DNA from: Mustelus asterias
Lineage: Eukaryota
NCBI RefSeq assembly: GCF_964213995.1
Contig: NC_135808.1
Location: 85,994,001-86,058,000, forward strand
DNA: 64,000 nucleotides
Reading direction: 5' to 3'
Under the pieces are notes generated by a model. The model was not told the origin of the DNA. It was given only the letters and a program-made list of their open reading frames with translations, and searched no databases. Below are positions 10,690-47,000 of this stretch, piece after piece. The first letter of the stretch is position 1; each line of letters begins with the position of its first letter. A program made the position numbers and the translations under genes.

Positions 10690-12125
10690 CCTCTGTGATT
10701 GACTGTTTAAATTTAAAGCCCTAGGTTTGGATCCTTTACTGTAAGATTATTAATTAACTCTATCTCAATTCACAATATTAAATCTAAAATAGCAGAGTCC
10801 CTAGTTGGTTCTGCAACATACTTAAAACTGTCTCAATGATTCCACTCCAACTGGTGTTACTTCCTAGTTTAAGTTATATTGGTTCTACATCATGATTTTG
10901 TGGACCATGATCCTTTGTCACTTCCCTCTTTATTTCAATCTTTACTATCAGGATTATCTCACCTCCTTTTCCATTTTGGCTAGCTTTCCTAATTGTCAAA
11001 TATCCTGGAATATTTACTTCCCAACTTTGGTCACTCTGCAACCACATCTTAGTAATGGTTGCTAGTTCAAGCACATTTATCTCTACTTGTGCCATCAATT
11101 CATCTATCTCATTACAGATGTTTTATGTATTCATAAATAGCTCCTTAAATGTTTTACTGTGCTCCCTGATGTGGCTTTAATCGCTAATGTTGTATTACCA
11201 TTGTTAATCTCTGTATATGTTGCTGATACAATTTACATGATTTAATCCAGATGACTGCTCTGCTGCACAACTTGACTATCTTCTTAAAAGATTCTTCTTT
11301 ACGTGAAGCATCATTCCTTCTTAGCAGTCTGTAGTCCTATCTACTACCCTGGTTATTCAATTCACAAGGACACTAGTTTAAGCCTGCTTAAGTGGAGTCC
11401 ACCCCAACGGAACAAGTCCTTCTTGCCCAGCTCTGATGCAAGCACTGCATGAATTGAAACCCCTGTCCCACTCACCTCTTTTCTGTCATGCATTTAAATT
11501 TTTAATCTGTCCCTATTCCAAATTGTACACAGCTCAGTATTATTCCAGAAATTATAACTTTTTTACTTTGTATCTGAGCTCCTCAAACCCATGCAACAGA
11601 ACCTTATTCCTAGTTCTACCTTTGTCATTGGTTTCTACATGAACTGCAACAACAACTTCCTCTCCATCTTTTTCTAGCCTCAAGGAGACATTGACAGACA
11701 ATTCAACTTTCAGTGCTGCTAGTCATGGCTACAGGGAGCAGTGTCTATCTCCTGAATATACTGCTCACTACGACTACCACATTCTCTTTTGCTCTCTCCA
11801 TTTGAATGGCTTTCAAATGGAGAGAGCAATCTCATCCACCCAAAACCTTGTTCTCATCCACACTGGTAGCAAGTACCTCATATGTGTTGGACAATGGCAA
11901 AGGCTGAGTCTCCAATACAGCTATAGCTGAGGCCTTCTCACGTAACTGAATCGCAGCCACATCCTCCCATCGCTGACCATGAAAGTTTAAACCAAATCTA
12001 ACCTCATGAATGTGACTGCCTCCTGGGTCAAAACGTCAAGGCAACTCTGTTCCTCCCTGATGCATTGCAATTTCTGCACCTTGGACTGCAGCTCAACAAT
12101 TCTGAACTAGAGTTCCTTGAACTAT
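10690..12125 (-). mobile_element. Old CR1 5' fragment (ORF1 esterase remnant, ORF1/ORF2 junction, endonuclease)
   Basis: ORF 10874..11098 (ITKMWLQ..WEVNIPGY..RK..GKGG); minus strand 11373-11430 reads GKKDLFRWGGLHL followed by cttaaactag. Confidence 0.7.
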
Positions 12126-16321: not shown

Positions 16322-18077
16322 AACAACAAAGAACAATACAGCACAGGAACAGGCCCTTCGGGCCTCCAAGCCTGCGCCGCTCATGTGCCCAACTAGACCA
16401 TTCGTTTGTATTCCTCTATTCCCAGTCTGTTCATGTGGCTATCTAGATAAGTCTTAAACGATCCCAGCGTGTCCGCCTCAATCACCTTGCTTTCCAGTGC
16501 AGTGCATTCCAGGCCCCCACCACCCTCTGTGTAAAATACGTCCCCCTGACATCTGTGTTGAACCTTGCCCCCCTCACCTTGAACCTGTGTCCCCTTGTTT
16601 TCGTCGCCTCCGACCTGGGAAAAAGCTTCCCACTGTTCACCCTATCTATGCCCTTCATAATTTTATACACCTCTATTAGGTCGCCCCTCGTCCTCCGTCT
16701 TTCCAGGGAGAACATCCCCAGTTTACCCAATCTCTCCTCATAGCTAAGACCCTCCATACCAGGCAACATCCTGGTAAACCTTTTCTGTACTCTCTCCAAA
16801 GCCTCCACGTCCTTCTGGCAGTGTGGCGACCAGAACTGTACGCAGTATTCCAAATGTGGCCTAACCAACATTCTATACAGCCGCAACATCATATGCCAAC
16901 TTTTATATTCTATGCCCCGTCCAATAAAGGCAAGCATGCCATATGCCTTCTTCACCACCTTTTCCACCTGTGCTGCCACCTTTAAGGATCTGTGGACTTG
17001 TACACCCAGATCCCTCTGTGTGTCTATACTCCTGATGATTCTGCCATTTATTGTATAGCTCCCCCTTACATTAGATCTACCGAAATGCATCACTTCGCAT
17101 TTATTTGGATTAAGTTCCATCTGCCATTTCTCCGCCCAATGTTCCAGCCTATCTATATCCTGCTGTATTCTCTGACAATGTTCATCACTATCCGCAACTC
17201 CAGCAATCTTCATGTCGTCCGCAAACTTACTGATCACACCAGCTACATCTTCCTCCAAATCATTTATATATATCACAAACAGCAGAGGTCCCAGTACAGA
17301 GCCCTGCGGAACTCCACTAGTCACAGACCTCCAACCGGAAAAAGACCCCTCCACTGCTAGCCCCCCTCTGTCTTCCATGGCTAAGCCAGTTCTCCACCCA
17401 TCTAGCTAGCTCACCTTTTATCCCGTGAGATTTAACCTTTTGCACCAGCCTGCCATGAAGGACCTTGTCAAACACTTTACTAAAATCCATATAGACGACA
17501 TCTACGGCCCTTCCCTCGTCAATTGTTTTTGTCACCTCCTCAAAAAACTCAACCAAATTTGTGAGGTATGACCTCCCTCGTACAAAACCATGCTGTCTAT
17601 CGCTAATGAGATTATTCAGTTCTAAATGCGCATATATCCTATCTCTAAGAATCTTCTCCAACAATTTCCCTACCATGGACGTCAAGCTCAGCAGCCTATA
17701 ATTACCCGGGTTATCCTTGCTACCCTTCTTAAATAACGGGACCACATTTGCTATCCTCCAAACCTCTGGGACCTCACCTGTGTCCAGTGAAGAGACAAAG
17801 ATTTCTGTTAGAGGCCCAGCAATTTCATCTCTTGCCTCCCTGAGGAGTCGAGGATAGATGCCATCCGGCCCTGGGGATTTGTCTGTCTTAATGTTTCCTA
17901 AAAAACCTAACACTTCCTCCCTTGTAATTGAGATTTTTTCTAACGGGTCAACACATCTCTCTGAGATGCTACCAATCAACATGTCCCTCTCCTTTGTGAA
18001 TACTGATGCAAAGTATTCGTTTAGGATCTCACCTACTTCCTTTGGTTCTAAGCATAATTCCCCTCCTTTGTCCCTGG
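16322..18077 (-). mobile_element. CR1 LINE, 5'-truncated, frameshifted RT
   Basis: ORFs 17317..17982 and 16482..17378 together give the RT (KSPGPDGI, DFSKVFDKV, PQGSVLGP, FADD); 3'UTR ends in a tgttctt-type tail. Confidence 0.95.
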
Positions 18078-19299
18078 TGTGTGGAATAGCATGAGAGTTT
18101 GCAGTGCAGTGGGTAGAAGATGTCTTTGGAAGATAAATTATCTGGCTTTGAACATTTGCATAAGGTAATTGAACTTTTCACAATACGACAATATGTCTTT
18201 AGGGCCAGACTCCTTTAGCTCACTTCCTTGGCCGTTGACCCCATTCCCTTTGGAGGGTGTGTCTTCAGAGCCTCCTGGGCCCTTACAGAATCATCACCTC
18301 TCACCTCATTTCAATTGTCTGGACTGAGGCCTCCAGCATTGCATCAAAGAAGCTTGAACCCTCTTTCCAGCCTCTTCTCCCATTGATAGTTTTCCTCCTT
18401 CCTTCAAAAACATTCAGAAGCAGTTCCCTGAGCTGCTGCAACCTGAATGCACTCCATCTTTCAGAGGGACAATCTGCCTTGCTGTAACTCGTGTCAAGCA
18501 CGCATGTGCCTGGGCCACCTCTGAGCATTTAGCTAGTCAGCAAAGCATATCCCCCCATTGGGGTACAGAGCACAATTGTGATGAACAAGCAGCATAAAGA
18601 TTTTTTGAAGCTTGTATCATCTTGACTAGGTGTGGCATAATCACGCATCGCTATCCCCTTATCAGCTAAAGGACTTTATTGAATTTTTAGCCCAAGATAT
18701 CATCCGAATTAATCCTCATAATGCTGAATGATGGTGCAGAAATCTATATAGAATGCCTGCATCTAGACTCTCATAATTAGTGTAAAATTGTAACAACTGA
18801 GAGATAATATCATTATCAGCTTAATTCCCATACTTTTTAATTTTGAAGAATTATCAGTTATTCTTCAATAGTTTTCCTTTAAGAAATCAATACAATTAAA
18901 TGGTGCTTATCCAAAAATGGGGAGCCACCTCACTGTGATTATGGGAAACCTCTGGTTATCCGGATCTTTATTGCGTTGAAGTTTTAGTTCATTATGCTAC
19001 GATTAGAATAACAGTATATGAAAGAGCTATCACCCATTATTTTATACTCTGACCTTTTTTTTTTCAAAGCTCTGTATCCAAGCCATGTAAAGTAAAATTT
19101 CCTATCGTACAGCATAGCCCTGCCACTGTAAATATTAACGCCGTTGTACTGTTTATTTCGCAGTTCAGATATCTTGTCCCTCCCTTTGTAGAATTCCTCT
19201 CTAACGCTAAAAACCTTCTCAAAACCCATCCTTTGCATTAAGTTTTAATTAATTAAGCGGCCTTGAAACTATGTAAATACAGGTTACTCTTTGAAGAGG

Positions 19300-23674: not shown

Positions 23675-26600
23675 TTGTGCCAATAGTTTAACCAGAGAAG
23701 ACCATCTGTACCTGTGGGGACTGTAAACTGACGGTAAACCAGGCTGTGAGATTGGATAGATATCCCATTCCAAAATAGAATATCTATATTCATAGTTGGC
23801 TGCGGGTCTGGCATTTACCAAATTGGACATGAGCCACGCACCAAGAAGTTATATTACTATGAATACACAGAAAAGTCTGTATCAATATACATGTCTACCA
23901 TTTGGGGTTTCATCAGCTTGCGCCATTTTTCAGTGAACTATGGAGAGTTTGCTGCAGGAGTGGCCTAAAGTTGTCATTTATTTGGATGACGTCCTAATGA
24001 CAGGATCCACCAAGGAGAAACATTTGAAAAATTCGGATGAAGTTTTAAAAAGCTTCCAGAAAGCGGGAATGTGATTGAAAAGAGAGAAGTTCACTTTCCA
24101 AGCAGATGAGGTGGCTTATCTTGGTTATCGGGTCAATGCTTAAGGGTTACCCACAATGAAGGGCAAAGCGAAAGTGATTAGAGAGGCACCAACACCTCAG
24201 AACACCTCAGAATTCAGATCCTTCCTAAAGATGGTTAATTATTATGGGTGGCTCCTCCAAAATCTTTCAACTTTGCTCTCTCCGTTACACGTGTTGTTGA
24301 AGAAACACCAAAGATGATACTGGAAAACTTCACAAAAAGAGGCTTTTAACTAAGTTAAACAAGCACTACAATTTTCAAGTTTATTAGTGCATTTTGACCA
24401 CTAAGAAGATAGTACTTCCATGTGATGCATCACCATATGGAGTTGGGGCTTTATCATCCCATGCAATGGAAGATGGGATGATAAAGCCCCAACTCTGAGA
24501 GACCCATAGGATGTGTATCAAGAACACTATCTGATGCGGAAAGACAGAACTCCCAGAAAGAAAAAGAAAGCCTAGCTGTTATCTTCGGCATCAAGAAGTT
24601 TCACCAATACATTTATAGGAAACATTTTACTATCATAACAGATCATAAGTTGTTTCTAGGACTATTCAGGGAGGACAATCGATTCCACCAATTGCATAGT
24701 GATGGGCACTCTTCTTGTCGGCTTATGAATATACCTCCCAACATTGACCAGGGGCTCACGTATCCAATGCAAATGTCTTAAGTCGTCTTACTGCACAAGA
24801 GATTGTAATGGCTTTAAACTTTCTGGACTCTTTACCTGCAACAGCATGACAAATTTAGTACTGGACTAATAAATATGCACTGTTATCAAAAATTAACCAT
24901 ATGATACTGCATGGATGGTGGATTGAGAGTGTTTCAGAGGAAATGAAGCCTTATCAGATCAGGAAGCATGAGCTCAATTGTGTGGATGGCATCATCCTTT
25001 GGGGAACAAGAGTGGAAGAGGATTATTGCCTGAGGAATTTCATAGTGCCCATCTGGGTGTGCCGAAGATGAAAGTGCGATCAAGAAGCTATATCTAATGG
25101 TCTCGCATTAATGCTGCAGTCAAAAGGGGTGTCAAACAATGCGATCAGTGCCAGTTCCAGCAAAAGCTACCAGCTACAGCCCCCTGCATCAGGTCGGCCA
25201 TGGGTAAAAGTTCACATGGATTACATTGGCTCATTTAAGGGCACAATGCTCCTTTTGTTAGTGGATGCCCATTTGAAATGGGTGGAAGTATTTGGAATGA
25301 GGTCCGCGACTTCACACGCCACACTTGAGAAGCTGCACCAATGTTTCGCCATCCATGACATCCCAGAAATACGTGTGAACGCTGTTCCATTGTCTGAGAC
25401 AAGTTCTGAGTTCCAGAAGTTCATGGCCTTCAATGGAATAAAACATATCCATACAGCACCATATTACCCTTCATCAAATGAGCTGGCTGAATGCAGAGTG
25501 CGAACATTCAAGGCCAGTGTGAAAAAGCAAACACCTGCTTGATTAGAAACTGAAATGGTATGTTTTCTGCTAGCTTATAGAACCATCCTGCATACTACTA
25601 TTGGAATAGCTTTAGCCGAGCTGTTAATGGGCCAACGCTTAAGGACCAGGTTGAACCTGGTAGTTCTGAATTTGGTGGAGAACATGGAGGCAAGACAGAG
25701 ATGGCAGCAAAGGAACCATGATTTGCCAAAAGTAGAAAGAGCATTTGAAATAGATGATCCAGTCTTTGTGAAGAATTTTGGAAGTGGACCAAATTGGGAC
25801 TCAGGAGTTGTGGTGGCCAGGATGGGGGCACTGTCTTATGAGGTGAAACTGTAGGACAAATTAATGAAGAAACACATTGATTATTTGAGAAGGCAAGAGC
25901 CATCTGAAGAATCAAAGCTATTGCCTGATCCAATTATGCCAGCAAGAGGTGGTGTTGTTTGTCCAGAAGATGAAATGGCTGATCAGTCAGTAGTAGACCA
26001 AAGTGCTGCTCCCAGTGAAACCAAGGAAGAGGAGGCACAGATTCCAGAGGAGAGTCCTGATGAAGCAAGTTCAACCAAACCTACCTCAAACAGTTGAGCT
26101 ATGTCGCTCCCATTTGAAAGCATGTAAGTTATGGAAATTATGGTCCAAATCTTTGGTCTGTGGATCACATGTGGAAGTCCTGATGCAAAACCTTTGTGGG
26201 AATTGGCCAGGAAGTTTAAACTTCCAATGAGCAATTCTGCTGCTCCCGTGGACCCTGTACAGAAGTTTCTGGCTTTGACCTAGAGTCGGAGATCAGGGAC
26301 AGATCCGTGGTACTTACCTGGATAGTTGCCTCAGAAACATTAGACAGTTTAACATCGAGTGTAACACTTGGGTAACTACCCAACTGACCCGCCAATTACA
26401 CCCTCTGACTAACCTCAATCCCAACTCCTGACTACACCCAACTGTCCCCCCGAACCAGACCTGACCTTCCCCCTGACCTAATTGCCCACCAGAACATACC
26501 TGACTGACCCCAACAGCTCAATTACTATCCCCTCCAACCTGACTATCATCCAACCAGCTGACCACCCTTGGCACAACTATGCCCCACTACCCCCCAACAA

Positions 26601-29330: not shown

Positions 29331-31100
29331 ATAAGACCATAAGACCAGAAGACATAGGAGCGGAAGTAAGGCCATTCGGCCCATCGAGTCCACTCCACCA
29401 TTCAATCATGGTTGATTTCAACTCCATTTACCCGCTCTCTCCCCATAGCCCTTAATTCCTCGAGAAATCAAGAATTTATCAATTTCTGTCTTGAAGACGC
29501 TCAACGTCTCGGCCTCCACAGCCCTCTGTGGCAATGAATTCCACAGACCTACCACTCTCTGGCTGAAGAAATTTCTCCTCATCTCTGTTCTAAAGTGACT
29601 CCCTTTTATTCTAAGGCTGTGCCCCCGCGTCCTAGTCTCCCCTGCTAATGGAAACAACTTCCCTACGTCCATCCTATCTAAGCCGTTCATTATCTTGTAA
29701 GTCTCTATCAGATCTCCCCTCAACCTCCTAAACTCCAATGAATATAATCCCACGATCCTCAGACGTTCATCGTATGTCAGGCCTACCATTCCTGGGATCA
29801 TCCGTGTGAATCTCCGCTGGACCCGCTCCAGTGCCAGTATGTCCTTCCTGAGGTGTGGGGCCCAAAATTGCTCACAGTACTCCAAATGGGGCCTAACCAG
29901 TGCTTTATAAAGCCTCAGAAGTACATCCCTGCTTTTGTATTCCAAGCCTCTTGAGATAAATGACAACATTACATTTGCTTTCTTAATTACGGACTCAACT
30001 TGCAAGTTTACCTTTAGAGAATCCTGGACTAGGACTCCCAAGTCCCTTTGCACTTTAGCATTATGAATTTTGTCACCGTTTAGAAAATAGTCCATGCCTC
30101 TATTCTTTTTTCCAAAGTGCACGACCTCGCACTTGCCCACGTTGAATTTCATCAGCCACTTCTTGGACCACTCTCCTAAACTGTCTAAATCTTTCTGCAG
30201 CCTCCCCACCTCCTCAGTACTACCTGCCCCTCCACCTATCTTTGTATCATCGGCAAACTTGGCCAGAATGCCCCCAGTCCCGTCATCTAGATCGTTAATA
30301 TATAAAGAGAACAGCTGTGGCCCCAACACTGAACCCTGCGGGACACCACTTGTCACCGGTTGCCATTCTGAGAAAGAACCTTTTATCCCAACTCTCTGCC
30401 TTCTGTCTGACAGCCAATCGTCAATCCAGGTTAGTACCTTGCCTCGAATACCATGGGCCCTTATTTTACTCAGCAGTCTCCCGTGAGGCACCTTGTCAAA
30501 GGCCTTTTGGAAGTCAAGATAGATAACATCCATTGGCTCTCCTTGGTCTAACCTATTTGTTATCTCTTCAAAGAACTCTAACAGGTTTGTCAGGCACGAC
30601 CTCCCCTTACTAAATCCATGCTGACTTGTCCTAATCCGACCCTGCACTTCCAAGAATTTAGAAATCTCATCCTTAACGATGGATTCTAGAATTTTGCCAA
30701 CAACTGAGGTTAGGCTAATTGGCCTATAATTTTCCATCTTTTTTCTTGTTCCCTTCTTGAACAGTGGGGTTACAACAGCGATTTTCCAATCCTCTGGGAC
30801 TTTCCCTGACTCCAGTGACTTTTGAAAGATCATAACTAACGCCTCCACTATTTCTTCAGCTATCTCCTTTAGAACTCTAGGATGTAGCCCATCTGGGCCC
30901 GGACATTTATCAATTTTCAGACCTTTTAGTTTCTCTAGCACTTTCTCCTTTGTGATGGCAACCATATGCAACTCTGCCCCCTGACTTTCCTGAATTGTTG
31001 GGATATTACTCATGTCTTCTACTGTGAAGACTGACGCAAAGTACTTATTAAGTTCCTCAGCTATTTCCTTGTCTCCCATCACTAGATTACCAGCGTCATT
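29331..31100 (-). mobile_element. CR1 LINE, 5'-truncated, with an uninterrupted RT ORF (562 aa)
   Basis: ORF 29418..31106 has all RT motifs (NYRPISL, DFQKAFDKV, PQGSVLGP, FADD); (ggtcttat)n tail; attata at both ends. Confidence 0.96.
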
Positions 31101-32887
31101 ATACATCCAAAACAGTGAAATTTAAGTCAGAGAAGATAATAGTTGAGCATTATGATACATATCTCCTCCTATGGCTCAGCTAGCTCTCGTTGAGATCAAA
31201 TAATTCAACACGGATATGGTTTGCCAGTCCAAGCATATTGATGGTCTGTTTGGTTCTACCCAAATTGGTCAATAGCTTTACCAGTGAATCTTCCGGAGAG
31301 TCATTGACATTCATTCTTCAAAGTAAATTTGTGCTTCTTATTTCACAAGTTGTGGAAAGTCCTGAGTATTCCACAGAGACAATTTAGATCAAATCCAGCA
31401 GTGTAATCATCTTTTTCTGTTGCTTTTCCATTCCCTATTCATTAGGAAATAAGCAGATCAGAATCTCAGGAAATAGTATTATTCAAAACGGACTGAATTT
31501 CTAAAAATGTAGTTAAGTATGCCTTCCCCTTCTGGAATAACACATTGTGAAAGAACATTGAAAACTCAGGGATTTTTGGCAATACTGACTTTTATACTCG
31601 AGTATTTATGATTATAGTCATACAAAATAATGCAATTAAAATGTCACTGTAAGTTTACAATTTTCTATATGAAAATAGACTTTATTTTTCTTAAAATTTA
31701 GTGCAAATTATTTTCAAATATCCCTTGATCATAATTTCTGGCTTGCTTTTGTTCTTTTATTGTTGGCTAAAAGGCGCTGCACTTTTACCTTTCTTCTCCT
31801 TTAAAGATTAGCCTTGAACATAACTTCACAAAGTGAGCAATGTGCTTTCCAAAGTGCCAAATCTCAGCTATCCAACCACTTCATAAACTTCAGACAGTGC
31901 GTCCTTTTCTATTGTTTAAGAATATGGTGACCACAACATGCAGTTAAGGAAGCATGGTTAATCATAACAGAAATGGTTGTGATGCAAGTAGGGTGTACTG
32001 ATTGATTTAAAATAAACAATGAGACCAAAATTCCAAGGCCGCACTGGTATTGCGGGAGTGGACATTGGATACAGGAGTCCTAATGGGGAGTAACAGGATC
32101 AGGCTCATTGAGAATGCCACCCATTGGCAAATTGCACAGTAGCCTGTTTGAGACAGGGCTATTTGCTGCTCTGTACATGGCCTTTGATTTCCAGGAGGGT
32201 GGAGCTGATGGGGTAAGTTCCACTACCAGAAGTTTGCTTGCTCCTGGCTTCTAATGTTCAGTGAGTGACCTGCCCTATAACACTTCACCAAAGCAGCAAT
32301 TTTTCATTAAATTTTGTACTGAGCATTATAAAACTATTGACCCAGTGCAAAGATTGCCCAAACTGGTGAGCTGCCTCCTTGAACTGCTGTATTACACAGT
32401 GCTGGTTGAGAAGCAGTTCAGGATTTTGACCTTACGAAGGTGAAAGATTGGCAATATAATTCCAAGTCAAGATGTGTATGGCTTGGAAGATAACTTGGGG
32501 TAGTGGTTTATCACTTAATTAGAGTGCGGTCTAAGATCAGAAATCAAGCATGTGTTTTCCCGAGTGATAATTTAATATCTGCGAAGAGTTGGTGAACAAA
32601 AATATTTGATGCTTATTATGCTACAAAGTAGAAATTTTTAACCTTTTTGTATATTGTCACTTTTTCCACCTGCAACTATTATGCTATGGCTATATTATTT
32701 GAATGGCCCTTTTTAAGGAGTACTTCTGTTCCCTGATGACTCACTAAGTAAGGGCAGCATCAGAGTGCCCAATATTGCTGGAGGTGAGCAATACAGTCCA
32801 GGCAGATCACAGATTTGATCACACATTTGTGCAGGATTGATCTCACCCAAACTACCAGTAAATCCTTGCACGACAGGACTTGCATAG

Positions 32888-33422
32888 AACATAGAACATA
32901 GAACATTACAGCGCAGAACAGGCCCTTCGGCCCACGATGTTGCACCGACCAGTTAAGGAAAAAAAAAACTGTGACCCTCCAACCTAAACCAATTTCTTTT
33001 CGTCCATGAACCTATCTACGGATCTCTTAAACGCCCCCAAACTAGGCGCATTTACAACTGATGCTGGCAGGGCATTCCAATCCCTCACCACCCTCTGGGT
33101 AAAGAACCTACCCCTGACATCGGTTCTATAACTACCCCCCCTCAATTTAAAGCCATGCCCCCTCGTGCTGGATTTCTCCATCAGAGGAAAAAGGCTATCA
33201 CTATCCACCCTATCTAAACCTCTAATCATCTTATATGTTTCAATAAGATCCCCTCTTAGCCGCCGCCTTTCCAGCGAAAACAATCCCAAATCCCTCAGCC
33301 TCTCCTCATAGGATCTCCCCTCCATACCAGGCAACATCCTGGTAAACCTCCTCTGCACCCTCTCCAAAGCCTCCACATCCTTCCTGTAATGTGGGGACCA
33401 GAACTGCACACAGTACTCCAAG
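32888..33422 (-). mobile_element. CR1 3' fragment with a 7-bp TSD
   Basis: HLEYCVQFWSPH...FFTQRVV..WN.LP; (gttctat)n tail; tgcatag at 32881-32887 and 33423-33429. Confidence 0.93.
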
Positions 33423-33644
33423 TGCATAGGGGGAAGAAAAAACATCAGTTGCTGTTTCTGCTCTCGGGAACCATATGTATGTGAGGTTGTCAGGTGAAGA
33501 GAGGATTAGACTTGACTGTGATATATTTTACAGTACAAAAAATTGCTAGGTTGCACTTGTTCCATATATTATTAAGCTCAGTTAGTGCATAAAAGTATCC
33601 CAGCATTTCTTAGTACTTTAATTAGGAGACAGAAAATTTATAGG

Positions 33645-39515: not shown

Positions 39516-40208
39516 AAGCTGCCAACTCAGTGCAGTACTGAGGGAATGCTGCACTATCAGAAATGCCATCTTTCAGTTGAGACATTAAACCAAAGCTCGG
39601 GCTGCCCTCTCAGGTTTTCACATAATAGTGCTCGCTGAGAAGCTCTCCTGAAATTACAGCCAAATTTTCAAGTGCAGCAGGAAACAAAGCTTTTTTTATT
39701 GCATTTATTTTTAACGTTTTTTTAAAAACACTCGTGCTAAGACCTGTACCGTATTTCTATAGTCTGGGAAGGGTTTTTATTTTAACTTTAAAAGTCAGTT
39801 ACCTGGGAGGTTCCCCCTCATTGTTCCACTGGAGCAAGCAGAGAGGGAGTGATTGGAGGCAGGAGTGCTGGTGAGAGATTGATTGAATTATTTATTTATT
39901 TAATTAGTCAGTTCGTGTGCGTTTTTTTTTGGCCTTTACTTTTGTAGTAGTATTTTTCTTAAGTTTAAAGTGAAAACTGGAAGTGAGTTGCTAAGGAGTC
40001 TGGGAAGGGTTTTTTAAGCGCGCAAAGTATAAAAGGTAGGCTGCAGTATACAGCGGGCAGCGTCGGGAGCGGGCAGGGGAGTGTGTGGGAAGCAGAGTGT
40101 GAGCTATAAGGGCTTTGGCTCACAGGGCTTCGGGGGACAGGGCGAGCAGGGGTGAGTTTAATTCATTTTTGCTGTTTCTACCTGGTACTGGCAAGGTATC
40201 TAGAGGGG

Positions 40209-41135
40209 ATGGGTGTGCAGGCAGTGCTATGTTCCTCTTGCACTATGTTTGAGGTGAGGGACGACGACAGTGTCCCTGCTGATTACATCTGTGGGAAGTG
40301 CACCCATCTGCAGCTCCTCCAAAACCGTGTTAGGGAACTGGAGCTGGAGTTGGATGAACTTAGGATCATTAGGGACGCAGAGGTGGCCATAGACAGAAGC
40401 TTTAGGGATACAGTTACTCCGAGGAATGAAAACAGATGGGTGACGGTGAGAGGGGCTGGGAGGAAGCTGTCCGTGCAGGGATCCCCTGTGGTCGTTCCCC
40501 TTAGCAACAAGTATTCCGCTTTGGATACGGTTGAGGGGGATGACATACCAGTGGTGAGCCGCAGTGAGAGGATCTCCAGCACTGTGTCCGTCTCTGTGGC
40601 TCGGGAGGGTAAGGGGCAGAGCGGGAGGGCAATAGTTATTGGGGACTCGTTAGTTAGAGGGATAGATAGGAGGTTCTGTGGCAGCAAAAGAGACTCACGG
40701 ATGGTATGTTGCCTACCGGATGCCAAGGTCCGTGACGTCTCGGACTGTGTTTTCCGGATTCTGAAGGGGGAGGGGAAACAGTCACAAGTCGTGGTACACA
40801 TTGGTACCAACGACATAGGTAAGAGAAGGGACGGGGATTTAAAACAGGAATTTCGGGAGCTGGGCTGGAAGCTGAAAGCCAAGACAAAACATGTGGTCAT
40901 CTCTGGTACGTTGCCGGTGCCACGTGATAGCAAGTTGAGGAACAGGGAGAGAGTGCAATTAAACATGTGGTTGCAGGGATGGTGTAGGAGGGAGGGTTTC
41001 AGATACGTGGATAATTGGAACACATTCTGGGGAAGGTGGGACCTGTACAAACAGGACGGGGTGCACCTGAACCAGAGGGGCACCAATATCCTGGGAGGGA
41101 AATTTGATACGGCTCTTCAGGGGGGTTTAAACTAA
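40209..41135 (+). CDS. CR1 ORF1p: zinc finger, coiled coil/leucine zipper, SGNH esterase domain (308 aa from the first ATG)
   Basis: CSSC..CGKC; LQNRVRELELELDEL; SGNH blocks IGDS, HIGTND and DGVHL. Confidence 0.93.
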   Translation: MGVQAVLCSSCTMFEVRDDDSVPADYICGKCTHLQLLQNRVRELELELDELRIIRDAEVAIDRSFRDTVTPRNENRWVTVRGAGRKLSVQGSPVVVPLSNKYSALDTVEGDDIPVVSRSERISSTVSVSVAREGKGQSGRAIVIGDSLVRGIDRRFCGSKRDSRMVCCLPDAKVRDVSDCVFRILKGEGKQSQVVVHIGTNDIGKRRDGDLKQEFRELGWKLKAKTKHVVISGTLPVPRDSKLRNRERVQLNMWLQGWCRREGFRYVDNWNTFWGRWDLYKQDGVHLNQRGTNILGGKFDTALQGGLN

Positions 41136-44032
41136 TTTGTCTGGGGAGTGGGAAAAGGAGTTGTAGTCCAGAAGTCAGTGTTGAGGGTGGTGAGGTATTG
41201 GGGAAGATATCAAGGCCAAGGGTGGGTACCGGTAGACAGGAAGGTGGGTTGAAGTGTGTCTACTTCAATGCAAGGAGCATCCGGAACAAGGTAGATGAAC
41301 TTGGGGCGTGGATTGGTACTTGGGACTATGATGTTGTGGCCATTACGGAGACGTGGGTAGAACAAGGACAGGAATGGTTGTTGGACGTTCCGGGGTATAG
41401 ATGTTTCAGTAAGTGTAGGGAAACTGGTAAAAGAGGTGGAGGAGTAGCATTGTTAATCAAGGATAGTTTAACGGCTGCGGAAAGGCACTTCGAGGGGGAT
41501 CTGCACACTGAGGTAATATGGGCTGAGGTTAGAAATAGGAAAGGAGCAGTCACATTGTTAGGAGTTTACTATAGGCCCCCAAATAGTAATAGAGATGTGG
41601 AGGAAGAAATTGCTAAGCAGATTATGGATATGTGTGGGGGTCACAGGGTAGTTGTCATGAGGGACTTTAACTTTCCAAATATTGATTGGAACCTTTGTAG
41701 GTCAAATAGTTCGGATGGGGCAGTTTTTGTGCAGTGTGTGCAGGAGGGTTTCCTGACACAATATGTGGATAGGTCGACAAGAGGTGAGGCCACATTGGAT
41801 TTGGTACTGGGAAATGAACCGGGCCAAGTGTTAGATTCGGTGGTGGGAGAGCACTTTGGAGATAGTGACAACAATTCAGTGTCTTTTGTTATTGCAATGG
41901 TGAGGGATAGGGCCGTACGGCAGGGCAAGGTTTACAATTGGGGGAGAGGTAATTATGATGCGATTAGGCAAGAATTAGGGGGCATAAGTTGGGAACAGAA
42001 ACTGTCAGAGAAAGGCACTAATGAAAAGTGGAACTTTTCCAAGGAACAAATACTGGGTGTCCTTGATAGGTATGTCCCTGTCAGGCAGGGAGGAAATGGC
42101 CGAGTGAGGGAACCATGGTTCACGAAAGAGGTGGAATGTCTTGTGAAAAAGAAGAGGGAAGCTTATGTAGGGATGAGGAAAGAAGGTTCAGATGGCTCGA
42201 TTGAGGGTTACAAGTTAGCAAGGAACGAGCTGAAAAAGGGGCTTAGGAGAGCTAGGAGGGGACATGAGAAGTCCTTGGTGGGTCGGATCAAGGAAAACCC
42301 CAAGGCTTTTTACTCTTATGTGAGGAATAAAAGAATGACCAGGGTGAGGTTAGGGCCGGTCAAGGACAGTAGTGGGAACTTGTGTATGGAGTCAGTAGAG
42401 ATAGGAGAGGTGATGAATGAATACTTTTCTTCAGTGTTCACCAAGGAGAGGGGCCATGTTTTTAAGGAAGAGAAGGTGTTACAGGCTAATAGGCTGGAGG
42501 AAATAGATGTTCGGAGGGAGGATGTCCTGGCAGTTTTAAATAAACTGAAGGTCGATAAGTCCCCTGGGCCTGATGAAATATATCCTAGGATTCTTTGGGA
42601 GGCAAGGGATGAGATTGCAGAGCCTTTGGCTTTGATCTTTGGGTCCTCACTGTCCACGGGGATGGTGCCAGAGGACTGGAGACTGGCGAATGTTGTTCCT
42701 CTGTTTAAGAAAGGGAATAGAAATGACCCTGGTAATTATAGGCCGGTTAGTCTTACTTCGGTGGTTGGTAAATTGATGGAAAAGGTCCTTAGGGATGGGA
42801 TTTACGACCATTTAGAAAGATGCGGAATAATCCGGGATAGTCAGCACGGTTTCGTGAAGGGCAAGTCGTGCCTCACAAATTTGATTGAATTTTTTGAGGA
42901 GGTAACTAAGTGTGTTGATGAAGGTAGGGCAGTTGATGTCATATACATGGATTTTAGTAAGGCGTTTGATAAGTTCCCCCATGGTCGGCTTATGATGAAA
43001 GTGAGGAGGTGTGGGATAGAGGGAAAGTTGGCCGATTGGATAGATAACTGGCTGTCTGATCGAAGACAGAGGGTGGTGGTGGATGGAAAATTTTCGGATT
43101 GGAGGCAGGTTGCTAGTGGAGTGCCACAGGGATCAGTGCTTGGTCCTCTGCTCTTTGTGATTTTTATTAATGACTTAGAGGAGGGGGCTGAAGGGTGGAT
43201 CAGTAAATTTGCTGATGACACCAAGATTGGTGGAGTAGTGGATGAGTTGGAGGGCTGTTGTAAGCTGCAAAGAGACATAGATAGGATGCAAAGCTGGGCT
43301 GAAAAATGGCAAATGGAGTTTAACCCTGATAAATGTGAGGTGATTCATTTTGGTAGGACTAATTTAAATGTGGATTACAGGGTCAAAGGTAGGGTTCTGA
43401 AGACTGTGGAGGAACAGAGAGATCTTGGGGTCCATATCCACAGATCTCTAAAGGTTGCCACTCAAGTGGATAGAGCTGTGAAGAAGGTCTATAGTGTGTT
43501 AGCTTTTATTAACAGGGGGTTGGAGTTTAAGAGCCGTGGGGTTATGCTGCAACTGTACAGGACCTTGGTGAGACCACATTTGGAATATTGTGTGCAGTTC
43601 TGGTCACCTCACTTTAAGAAGGATGTGGAAGCGCTGGAAAGGGTGCAGAGGAGATTTACCAGGATGCTGCTTGGTTTGGAGGGTAGGTCTTATGAGGAAA
43701 GGTTGAGGGAGCTAGGGCTGTTCTCTCTGGAGCGGAGGAGGCTGAGGGGAGACTTAATAGAGGTTTATAAAATGATGAAGGGGATAGATAGAGTGAACGT
43801 TCAAAGACTATTTCCTCGGGTGGATGGAGCTATTACAAGGGGGCATAACTATAGGGTTCATGGTGGGAGATATAGGAAGGATATCAGATGTAGGTTCTTT
43901 ACGCAGAGAGTGGTTGGGGTGTGGAATGGACTGCCTGCAGTGATAGTGGAGTCAGACACTTTAGGAACATTTAAGCGGTTATTGGATAGGCACATGGAGC
44001 ACACCAGGATGATAGGGAGTGGGATAGCTTGA
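41108..44032 (+). CDS. CR1 ORF2p: APE endonuclease and reverse transcriptase (frame open from 41108; no ATG until 41624)
   Basis: YFNARSI, ITETW, YRPP, (R)DFN, LDL, SD(N); RT motifs NYRPVSL, DFSKAFD, PQGSVLGP and FADD. Confidence 0.95.
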   Translation, partial: YGSSGGFKLICLGSGKRSCSPEVSVEGGEVLGKISRPRVGTGRQEGGLKCVYFNARSIRNKVDELGAWIGTWDYDVVAITETWVEQGQEWLLDVPGYRCFSKCRETGKRGGGVALLIKDSLTAAERHFEGDLHTEVIWAEVRNRKGAVTLLGVYYRPPNSNRDVEEEIAKQIMDMCGGHRVVVMRDFNFPNIDWNLCRSNSSDGAVFVQCVQEGFLTQYVDRSTRGEATLDLVLGNEPGQVLDSVVGEHFGDSDNNSVSFVIAMVRDRAVRQGKVYNWGRGNYDAIRQELGGISWEQKLSEKGTNEKWNFSKEQILGVLDRYVPVRQGGNGRVREPWFTKEVECLVKKKREAYVGMRKEGSDGSIEGYKLARNELKKGLRRARRGHEKSLVGRIKENPKAFYSYVRNKRMTRVRLGPVKDSSGNLCMESVEIGEVMNEYFSSVFTKERGHVFKEEKVLQANRLEEIDVRREDVLAVLNKLKVDKSPGPDEIYPRILWEARDEIAEPLALIFGSSLSTGMVPEDWRLANVVPLFKKGNRNDPGNYRPVSLTSVVGKLMEKVLRDGIYDHLERCGIIRDSQHGFVKGKSCLTNLIEFFEEVTKCVDEGRAVDVIYMDFSKAFDKFPHGRLMMKVRRCGIEGKLADWIDNWLSDRRQRVVVDGKFSDWRQVASGVPQGSVLGPLLFVIFINDLEEGAEGWISKFADDTKIGGVVDELEGCCKLQRDIDRMQSWAEKWQMEFNPDKCEVIHFGRTNLNVDYRVKGRVLKTVEEQRDLGVHIHRSLKVATQVDRAVKKVYSVLAFINRGLEFKSRGVMLQLYRTLVRPHLEYCVQFWSPHFKKDVEALERVQRRFTRMLLGLEGRSYEERLRELGLFSLERRRLRGDLIEVYKMMKGIDRVNVQRLFPRVDGAITRGHNYRVHGGRYRKDIRCRFFTQRVVGVWNGLPAVIVESDTLGTFKRLLDRHMEHTRMIGSGIA

Positions 44033-47000
44033 TCTTGGTTTCAGATAAAGCTCGGCACAACATCGTGGGCCGAAGGGCCTGTTCTGTGCTGTACTGTTCT
44101 ATGTTCTATGTTCTATCCATTTAAATAGATTTTTAAGGCACAAGTCACATTAAAAATTGAAAAGCTTCCCCGATTACAATTTCTTAAATGATTGTTGAAC
44201 AAGTTAAAACCTGAATCTTCATACAACTTAAAGTATATTTGGCACTTTCACTGATTGTTCATGCTGACTTTACATCTACTTTATGTTCAAACATATTCAG
44301 ATGCACAGGGATTTTGCATGTAATTAGACATTGGCAGAATGTATCTAGTGACAAGAAAGAGGGAATATTAGGGCATTGTGATGGAAGTTCTCTTGATAAT
44401 AAATTCATGGAGTTTGTATTGGGAAATATCAAGGAATTTCTATCCCCCGGAATACTTCTAATGTAAATAAGAGACCATGCTAAATTCAAGCATGTGGAGT
44501 TAACCAGCAATTGTCCATTATTTGGTAACTAACGTGTTGTATGTATGTGAAGGAAAGTAACCTTCTGTCAGCAGTTTGTTGATTCTGCAGGAGGTCTCAG
44601 CAAAGATGAGGTAAATGTGCCAGTAGTCCAGATGTTACAGGTCATTCCCCATTATGGTGAAGGAAAAATACTACTGCAATTACTCTCCAGTAAACTGTAG
44701 GGGCTAGAGATTAATCCATAAAAGAGAAATCATATATGGCAGATTTAGTAAGAGGCTGCATGACCCAGCGTGGTACTGGGCCATATTGTAATGTCCTGGG
44801 TTCACCTGTACTGAATTAGCTGATCACAGCCAGGGAATATCCAGTAATTCACGCTGGAAGGTACAGCCATTGGGTGAGGGCAAGATTGTGCATTTCTTTG
44901 ATTTCCCACTACAGTTAAATACGTTGCTGACATTTATTGTCTAGATTAAACATGAAAAATGAATGCCTACCTATATTGCCAAAGAGGCTTTTATTTAAAA
45001 TTATAAAATGCATAAGGTTAATGTATTGGAATAGAGTGGGGACACAAGTTTAATTTCACCTGCTTTCTCACCACATGTATTCTAGTGTGATTATAGTAGA
45101 TGGGTAAACAGGTGAAAGGGAATAAACATTAACATTTCAGCCTAGAGTGAACCCTAGCAAAGTGACAGAAGTGGAATGGAGTGGGACTGGTGTCAAATGA
45201 TGTGAGAGCCTAAACATGACGTTCCCCACAACATAATACTTGAATATTCAGAACATGTAATCTTGTGACTGTAACTGCAGCAACTGTCCACTCCGAGAAG
45301 GAACCCTTAAACTGGCGAATTCATGTTTTCTGCACATCAAGAAAATAGTCTGTCAGGCGGTTTAGTTATCCAGACTACACAAAATTTAAACCTGCTCATT
45401 TAACCTTTAATGCATGCAAGCTGGGCAATAGGTTTAGGTTGCAGGCGAGCCCTGAGATTGAGCACATTTGCCTCACTCAAGGTGGGCTTGTTGTCATAAC
45501 CTCTTGATATGCTCGTCTGTGTCTTCATTCACCACAGTTTCCTGGACCATGGGAAATGGTGAATTTGTTGATACCTCCTTCACTGCACTTGAATCTCATT
45601 CCTGCTCCTTTAATATGTTGTGCAGGTTAGGATCTGTGATGCTGCCAAATTAAGTGAGGCTAATTCCACAACATGAGGAATCTTCATGTAATGCAAAACT
45701 CCTTCCAGTAGAAACAGATTTACAGGGAATAAAATTGAACATGAATTTTATATTAAAAAAACAATGAAGTATTAAATATCATTGGCTTGAAATCAAGGTG
45801 CATCAAATCACTCACAGTATTGATTAAAAACAACATTCATATATCGCTTTGAATTTACTCATTTAGCATACTGCAACATAATAGGATGTACTGCACACAG
45901 TGTGAAGAATACATTATGTAAGATATACTAATATGATTTGAATAGGAGATCCCCTGCAAAACATATTCTGACATTTTTTAAATAAACCTTGATTTTAACA
46001 TGAACATAAGGCAACATTCTTTAACAATAGTAAGGTCAACTTTTGAACAGTCTGAAGTAACTGTGTCTTTGTAACACCCTTATATTAGCCTAAGCCAATA
46101 TATGAGAAATACGTTACACAAGCAAGTACTCGTTTAAGATGAATAGCTGGATCGATCAAATTGAGGGGCTTAGTGCAGCGAAAACAATCAAATTTGAAAT
46201 ATACAGACAGAAAGGTGTCAGGTTTAATCTCAAGTCTGTATTCGGTTAATTGGGGGAGTCACAGGATTAGGGAAGAGAAAAAATATACCTGGGTACCCTC
46301 ATCATTGATCATTATCAAACGATCCCTTGCTGTGAAGCCACATGTGGAGGATGCCAGGTGAGGTATCTATCTCAGCTGTGATGCAGCAGACAATTAAGTA
46401 ATCTTCTGGCTTCACAGTTTTAAGCTCACAAATAAAGAACAGTCACTTGGACAAAATCTAAGAGTCAAACCCATGGAGCGCTATTCCATCATTAAAAGAG
46501 GAAGAAAAATTAAAGGGATCACTAATGTAATTTTTGCTTCATATTTTAATTGGAAGTCAGATAAATCAATAAAGACATAAGGAAGGCATTTTTGAAGAAG
46601 GCAAAGGGGTACAGGCTGTTTTATATGATCATGACAGTTATTCTTTTGCTAATGCTGAGGCAAAGACGAGTTATATTTGCACATAAAATGGTTTAGAAAC
46701 CAGGCAGCTCCATTGTTCACTGGTAATAAAACATGGAGAGGGAATTCTTGTAGTAACTAGCTGGAGGAATGTCATGTGATGTGGTTGCTATGGAGCTGTA
46801 CTGTTCATTTCATGGTGCTGCTTGAAGTTCAGTCTCAAGATTCTCTGGGGCTCCTTGCTGCAGTTGTCCCCCCATGTTCTAATCTCTTTATCAGCAGTGC
46901 AGAAAAAGCTAGGTGATGTCACTGCAGCTGAGCTGAAAGCCAATCAGATAAAGGGTGAATAGCATTTCTATGCAGGCACTGTGCTTCATCTCAGAATTAA

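Follow-up and report, generated by a model that had tools for sequence, protein, structure and literature searches.

A conserved slippery heptamer at the ORF1–ORF2 junction of an esterase-type CR1 retrotransposon of Mustelus asterias is a candidate site of programmed -1 ribosomal frameshifting

The way in which long interspersed nuclear elements (LINEs) translate their second open reading frame (ORF2) has been called an open question (PMC3894237), and the worked-out cases use reinitiation. A -1 frameshift is required for ORF2 translation in the Dictyostelium elements TRE5-A and TRE3-A according to a review figure legend (PMC5911963), and frameshifting in the gag of HeT-A is mentioned in a second review (PMC5009743). 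The latter source also identifies U_UUA_AAC as the site of infectious bronchitis virus, places U_UUA_AAC and G_GGA_AAC among the most shifty heptamers on mammalian ribosomes, and recounts the nsp2 frameshift of PRRSV (the virus causing porcine reproductive and respiratory syndrome), in which nsp1beta and PCBP act on CCCANCUCC, a motif that lies 3′ of the shift site at a distance of 11 nt and takes the place of an RNA structure; CR1 elements are not mentioned in its first 300,000 characters. CR1-group elements constitute 22–34% of shark and ray genomes (PMC13343379) and ~12% of the chicken genome (PMC11835228). Here a CR1-type LINE was analyzed in a 64,000-nucleotide stretch of the Mustelus asterias genome (assembly GCF_964213995.1, contig NC_135808.1, forward-strand positions 85,994,001–86,058,000), termed the window, whose first nucleotide is position 1. 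The two ORFs of this element meet at a TTTAAAC heptamer that probably directs programmed -1 ribosomal frameshifting onto an AUG-less ORF2.

ORF1 of the element (40209–41135, forward strand) encodes 308 amino acids ending ...GGLN*, with a Pfam PF13472 match (E 5e-12) supported by alignment, and its start ATG at 40209 was placed from the N-termini of homologs. The frame finishes GGT TTA AAC TAA: the heptamer T_TTA_AAC occupies 41126–41132 in the X_XXY_YYZ phase of ORF1 and adjoins the stop codon TAA at 41133–41135. ORF2 lies in the -1 frame, which is open from 41108 to 44032 (974 amino acids; Pfam PF03372 and PF00078) and overlaps ORF1 by 28 nt. The first Met codon in this frame is at 41624, 166 codons past the heptamer, within the endonuclease and 3′ of the motifs YFNARS, ITETW and YYRPP, and an AUG-less linker of 40 codons (41132–41251) leads up to the endonuclease. 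The arrangement is as set out in a preliminary description of this DNA, as is the predicted fusion length (308 + 966 = 1274 amino acids). All 30 of the closest copies (98–100% identity) retain TTTAAAC-TAA, and none has a Met in the linker, here taken as 42 codons: the first Met is codon 166 in 21, lies at codons 73–156 in five, and is preceded by a stop codon in four. Nor does an AUG overlap or adjoin the ORF1 stop codon in any of the 30, and the SART1-type stop-start arrangement is therefore absent from this family. As 36 strings comprising the heptamer and a stop codon occur on the two strands of the window, a lone heptamer is not above chance and the evidence consists of conservation at the homologous position.

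This conservation was assessed in the 3.68 Gb host genome at 170 loci, duplicates included, which were retrieved with one DNA and five protein queries as the best 30 (20 in one search) of the 40–150 scored matches in each search. To place the site, the C-terminal part of ORF1 was matched with a query that lacked the two final residues. TTTAAAC occupied the end of ORF1 in 156 of the 170 loci and TTTAAAT or TTTAAAA in five more (161/170); the heptamer was absent from the remaining nine, which comprised six single-base variants and three rearranged ends. When non-duplicate junctions from this genome and from a metagenome scan were pooled, 161 sequences formed 24 clusters at 85% identity. TTTAAAC was the common state in all seven multi-copy clusters of the host genome, the representatives of which share 52–79% identity. 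The codon preceding the TTA of the heptamer varies (GGT, GAT, GCT, GTT, AGT), yet its last base is T in every copy except one. A stop codon, whether TAA, TAG or TGA, directly follows the heptamer in 20/20 lineage representatives, and three copies in the host genome read LNY* with the heptamer intact. An older, decayed copy in the window (~11373–11383, minus strand) had been cited in support of the site. It carries no heptamer at the homologous ORF1 end: its TTAAACTAG begins 18 nt after the start of the GLHL motif, compared with 68 nt in the window copy, and so is not the homologous site.

Codon usage at the junction was compared in 18 hand-picked, mutually related lineage representatives. The terminal Leu codon was TTA in 17/17, whereas five other conserved Leu columns each used 3–5 codons (TTA in 5/80) and TTA accounted for 39 of the 300 Leu codons in the ORF1s of the representatives. 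Similarly, the terminal Asn codon was AAC in 17/18 compared to 8/17 at another conserved Asn, and the other 17 conserved columns, with the exception of one His column, displayed mixed codons. The base before TTA was T in 19 of 20 representatives, while third positions further upstream vary. These comparisons indicate that the constraint on the junction acts on nucleotides or RNA beyond the protein; the representatives, being related, are not independent draws, but nearby synonymous sites have turned over.

The heptamer, its phase and the -1 relation of the ORFs proved to be conserved far beyond the family of the window copy when junctions were compared more widely. The metagenome scan yielded 50 loci, and in 13 of them the sequence continues for 60 nt or more beyond the end of ORF1. 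Of these 13 junctions, nine have TTTAAAC followed by TAG, TAA or TGA, although their ORF1s are only ~30% identical to that of the window copy; the C-terminal parts of these ORF1s are similar to proteins of swallow and turtle. One locus (L063) has G_GGA_AAC_TAG in phase instead, and its -1 frame stays open for 930 codons, across the endonuclease and reverse transcriptase; another (L105) has TTTAAAC in a decayed context. In a protein survey, 102 of 150 cluster representatives reached the C-terminal helix and ended within 30 residues. Sixty-two of the 102 terminate in LN, GN or KN compared to a 5% background for all slippery-compatible dipeptides, in a survey whose search profile had LN as its own last residues; among the members that carry a species name are a snake, a swallow and two turtles. 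A quick ORF1 tree built without the last six residues contains a 23-row clade (Shimodaira–Hasegawa-like approximate likelihood ratio test support of 94) in which KN, GN, LN and FF[RH] ends are mixed, these being the dipeptides of four slippery heptamers. DNA for ORF1s ending in GN, KN or FF was not found in four viral scans, a prokaryote-genome scan gave three loci of which none had an ORF2 junction, and a GN-type protein query of the host genome returned only TTTAAAC families. A search for annotated ORF1–ORF2 fusion proteins of greater length had no hits, a result that carries little weight.

Other arrangements were noted among distant esterase elements. Two SGNH-type ORF1s (L092:1181–1744 and L090:1497–1775) end with an in-frame TGA followed by CTA, and in L092 an endonuclease-like frame (YYNINSLRNK...AETK) continues past the TGA in the frame of ORF1 itself. 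UGA-CUA is a known readthrough context, and other esterase LINEs may obtain ORF2 by stop codon readthrough. In L082 (2960–4005) a single frame, uninterrupted by stop codons, extends from the esterase ORF1 across a Pro/Ser-rich linker to an endonuclease-like region, and represents either a natural in-frame ORF1–ORF2 fusion or a mutated copy.

The region between the heptamer and the endonuclease was examined in 141 of the 161 junctions, 16 having no endonuclease anchor and four (L082, L105, L177 and one with an insertion) being dropped. The distance is a multiple of three in 105 of the 141 copies and in the modal state of 14 of 15 clusters, and linker lengths range from 102 to 357 nt with the -1 frame kept. 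Over 8012 linker codons there were 104 stop codons in the endonuclease frame compared to 550 and 718 in the other two frames. This pattern suggests that ribosomes read the linker in the -1 frame. Seven of the 18 representatives have a linker devoid of Met, and in another five a Met comes more than five codons on.

Downstream of the heptamer, 18 of 20 representatives have a run of at least four G residues that starts after 9–13 nt (in 13 of them after 11 nt) and is followed 2 nt later by GGG, whereas such a G run occurs at 1–9% of random places in the same elements. In the window copy the motif, of G5-N2-G3 type, is at 41143–41152 and is a candidate 3′ stimulator on grounds of conservation; a G tract had earlier been placed 7 nt downstream, but the conserved tract starts 11 nt after the heptamer. 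G is found in 18–20 of 20 representatives at five positions of the motif and in 15–19 at three more, and at least six of the eight motif G residues are kept in 141/155 copies. Third codon positions of the motif are also G (19, 18 and 15 of 20), and the remainder of the linker is not conserved. The tctgg/ccaga stem suggested initially for this region did not withstand comparison: it needs T at 41142, which is private to the window copy (1/30), the other 29 copies and contigs of 4/4 further runs having A. Folding did not find a stem or pseudoknot of the coronavirus 1a/1b type 5–9 nt downstream, no dedicated pseudoknot predictor having been run, and no consistent best site for a long-range partner of the G motif emerged across 34 elements. 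A C-rich, proline-coding site ~630 nt upstream ranks in the top 1–16% of sequence windows, but own pairs did not clearly outperform swapped ones (permutation p 0.09, 12 lineages). A 5-bp hairpin that would close the G motif shows suggestive swaps in sharks (TTTGG/CCAAA, TTCAG/CTGAA), but p is 0.06 over 20 representatives and its 5′ arm would fall in the ribosome channel. G4Hunter scores are at or above the 90th percentile of the element in 18/20 representatives, but a quadruplex appears in the minimum-energy fold in only 5/20. With low confidence, the G motif 11 nt downstream may be a stimulator that operates via a bound protein or as a G-quadruplex, and not via a local pseudoknot. Separately, a hairpin (CCAGGC...GCCTGG type) is seen ~25–55 nt after the heptamer, just 3′ of the G motif, in the bird-type loci L067, L071, L074 and L075 and was not seen in shark lineages.

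Judged from sequence comparison, the junction is a real, deeply conserved recoding-type signal, and programmed -1 frameshifting at U_UUA_AAC to yield a predicted 1274-amino acid ORF1–ORF2 fusion is its probable role; the proposal that ORF2, devoid of a usable AUG, is reached by such a shift withstood every comparative test that was run. Most ribosomes would stop at the codon adjacent to the heptamer and release the ORF1 protein. A minority would slip back by one base, with UUA/AAC re-pairing on UUU/AAA, and would read ...GGLN-LIC... through the variable linker into ORF2. The slip itself, the fusion protein and a low ORF2:ORF1 ratio are predictions of this scheme. The junction peptide nominated earlier for mass spectrometry contains a Leu private to the window copy where most copies have Gln. 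As no protease domain is among the Pfam matches of the window element, the fusion may remain uncut. More tentatively, and with considerable doubt, one ancient gag-pol-like -1 frameshift might be common to CR1 LINEs of the esterase type, in lineages that range from invertebrate-like ones to those of sharks, turtles, snakes and birds. Its stimulator would be the structure-free G-rich motif 11 nt downstream, recognized by a protein (either a host factor that binds G runs or the ORF1 protein) or acting as a G-quadruplex.

Several observations weigh against frameshifting. The queries that retrieved the loci themselves included the junction or the LN terminus, and the lineages share ancestry, so the counts are not independent events. 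The DNA evidence for a switch of heptamer class is one locus (L063), and the distant esterase LINEs L082 and L090 do not have the heptamer. Forty of the 102 surveyed proteins do not end in LN, GN or KN, and a slippery-compatible terminus is absent from one 8-row and one 9-row clade of the tree. A classical 3′ stimulator was not found: the downstream folding check proposed at the outset gave z-scores of at least -2.0 in 20/20 representatives, and RNAalifold gave 0 consensus pairs over 11 junctions. Finally, an AUG in the ORF2 frame is within five codons of the heptamer in 6 of 18 representatives, five of them bird- or turtle-type and mostly arranged as UAG-NN-AUG, and the open linker is equally expected under non-AUG reinitiation near the stop codon.

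The last two points belong to the main rival, termination-reinitiation near the ORF1 stop codon, at AUG where present and at non-AUG codons elsewhere, under which the heptamer and the G motif would serve to signal termination or reinitiation. Reinitiation is possible in those six lineages, its best evidence being the proximity of the AUG, which is 2 nt after UAG in L066, L067, L068 and L074 and overlaps the stop codon in L097. According to reviews, SART1 employs reinitiation and L1 an initiation that does not depend on AUG. However, the seven representatives without a linker AUG have no near-cognate codon in common, and L071 and L075 carry TCG and TGG where close bird-type relatives have ATG. 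Moreover, reinitiation leaves unexplained the X_XXY_YYZ pattern, its phase, the GGGAAAC swap and the -1, never modally +1, relation of the frames. Overall, reinitiation is an unlikely, albeit the strongest, alternative to frameshifting.

Expression of ORF2 from a separate or processed RNA, generated by splicing, by an internal promoter in which TTTAAA would be a TATA-like box accompanied by a G-box, or by polymerase slippage, is improbable to a greater degree. TTTAAA and the G-rich boxes resemble promoter elements, a CTAAT in shark copies resembles a branch point, and one contig of run X4 skips 41124–41234. Nevertheless, a subgenomic RNA of the window family still would have no AUG before the endonuclease, and the phase of the heptamer and the GGGAAAC swap are not accounted for. 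No run recorded as RNA contains this stretch. In contigs of four runs whose RNA status was guessed, GT..AG ends were present at 0/9 listed joints, the listed indels amounted to 1 nt in the 5′ untranslated region (UTR) plus 3 nt in the linker, and a 1757-nt contig of run X2 is colinear across the junction with only a 3-nt gap; these contigs weakly disfavor splicing. Constraint on protein, whereby the ORF1 protein must end in Leu-Asn and the ORF2 protein begins with a Gly-x-Gly patch while ORF2 is expressed otherwise, would fit with LN as the commonest ORF1 end and with the QGxG or KGEG encoded by the G motif in the -1 frame, but is scarcely credible, being largely refuted by codon and motif conservation at synonymous positions (TTA in 17/17; the motif third positions described above) and by relatives that swap LN for GN, KN or FF, as well as by the three LNY* copies.

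The near full-length element spans 39761–44116 on the forward strand with an approximate 5′ end, as the 5′ matches of sister copies reach 39761, 39771 and 39790. ORF1 comprises a Cys-rich N-terminus, then a heptad-like segment and then an SGNH/GDSL esterase, and an APE endonuclease (~41261–41869) and a reverse transcriptase (~42713–43432) are both inside the ORF2 frame. The 3′ terminus at 44095–44116 is a (TGTTCTA)x3 microsatellite (3.1 repeats) without poly(A); CR1 LINEs end in short tandem repeats and not in poly(A). With an ORF2 of APE-then-reverse transcriptase order, an esterase ORF1 behind a Cys-rich N-terminus and a repeat 3′ end, this is a CR1 LINE of the esterase-ORF1 type. Sharks and rays supply the closest named relatives of its ORF1, and its ORF2 is 41–44% identical to those of bird-type loci. 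Two occurrences of the motif gtctgggaagggtttt, at 39762–39780 and 39998–40016, lie ~236 nt apart in the 5′ UTR, and the first coincides with the furthest 5′ end among the sister copies. Two endonuclease motifs (41657–41880) look degenerate in the window copy, though both ORFs are open, and this copy may be inactive. Further 5′-truncated CR1 reverse transcriptase fragments and a decayed integrase-like fragment of long terminal repeat-element type account for the segments 16482–18177, 29418–31121 and 32984–33505 on the minus strand and 25072–25854 on the plus strand of the window. ORF1 searches of the host genome gave 40,000–67,000 first-look candidates, which are not copy numbers but suggest very many near full-length CR1 copies. 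A CR1 ORF1 with 71% identity (P0006) is deposited as a Pseudomonas aeruginosa SGNH hydrolase, and the deposit is probably host-DNA contamination.

The mechanism proposed is a known one in a LINE group for which no report of it was found, and the candidate stimulator is unusual. The word "frameshift" is absent from PMC13343379 and PMC4120745 by term counts, and a full-text literature search found no report of a CR1 frameshift in a collection that excluded the bulk of subscription journals; the overlap may be mentioned in the papers that first described CR1 sequences or in notes of Repbase, both beyond that collection. If the reading is correct, the CR1 LINE group would rely on the solution of retroviruses, an ORF1–ORF2 fusion would be its active polymerase, and ORF2 annotations that begin at an internal AUG would be truncated. 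Were the reading of the G motif also correct, a cellular retroelement would naturally use a frameshift stimulated by a G motif, and the CR1 particle would contain an esterase-endonuclease-reverse transcriptase fusion; the G motif would be a second novelty given that natural G-quadruplex frameshift stimulators were not known in 2016 (PMC5009743).

The window element shares the composition of canonical vertebrate CR1, namely an esterase ORF1, APE and reverse transcriptase, which is abundant in sharks and rays (PMC13343379, PMC4120745). In common with SART1 and mammalian L1 it would be expressed from a bicistronic LINE RNA, and in SART1 and L1 ORF2 depends on ORF1 translation with low output. However, these elements reinitiate by way of a UAAUG stop-start or a spacer of 63 nt, which yields a separate ORF2 protein, whereas the CR1 ORFs overlap at a slippery site. 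The resemblance to PRRSV is one of geometry only: the motif spacing is 11 nt in both, but the PRRSV motif is C-rich and that of CR1 is G-rich. As in retroviral gag-pol and coronavirus 1a/1b, an X_XXY_YYZ heptamer ends the upstream structural ORF and the polymerase ORF is in the -1 frame, but in CR1 the host of the site is a non-LTR element and no stem-loop or pseudoknot was found 5–9 nt downstream. TRE5-A and TRE3-A likewise are APE-type non-LTR elements, reported to need a -1 frameshift for ORF2 in a legend that names neither slippery site nor stimulator nor experiment; they belong to another LINE group and have another type of ORF1, whereas the CR1 site is conserved across vertebrate lineages.

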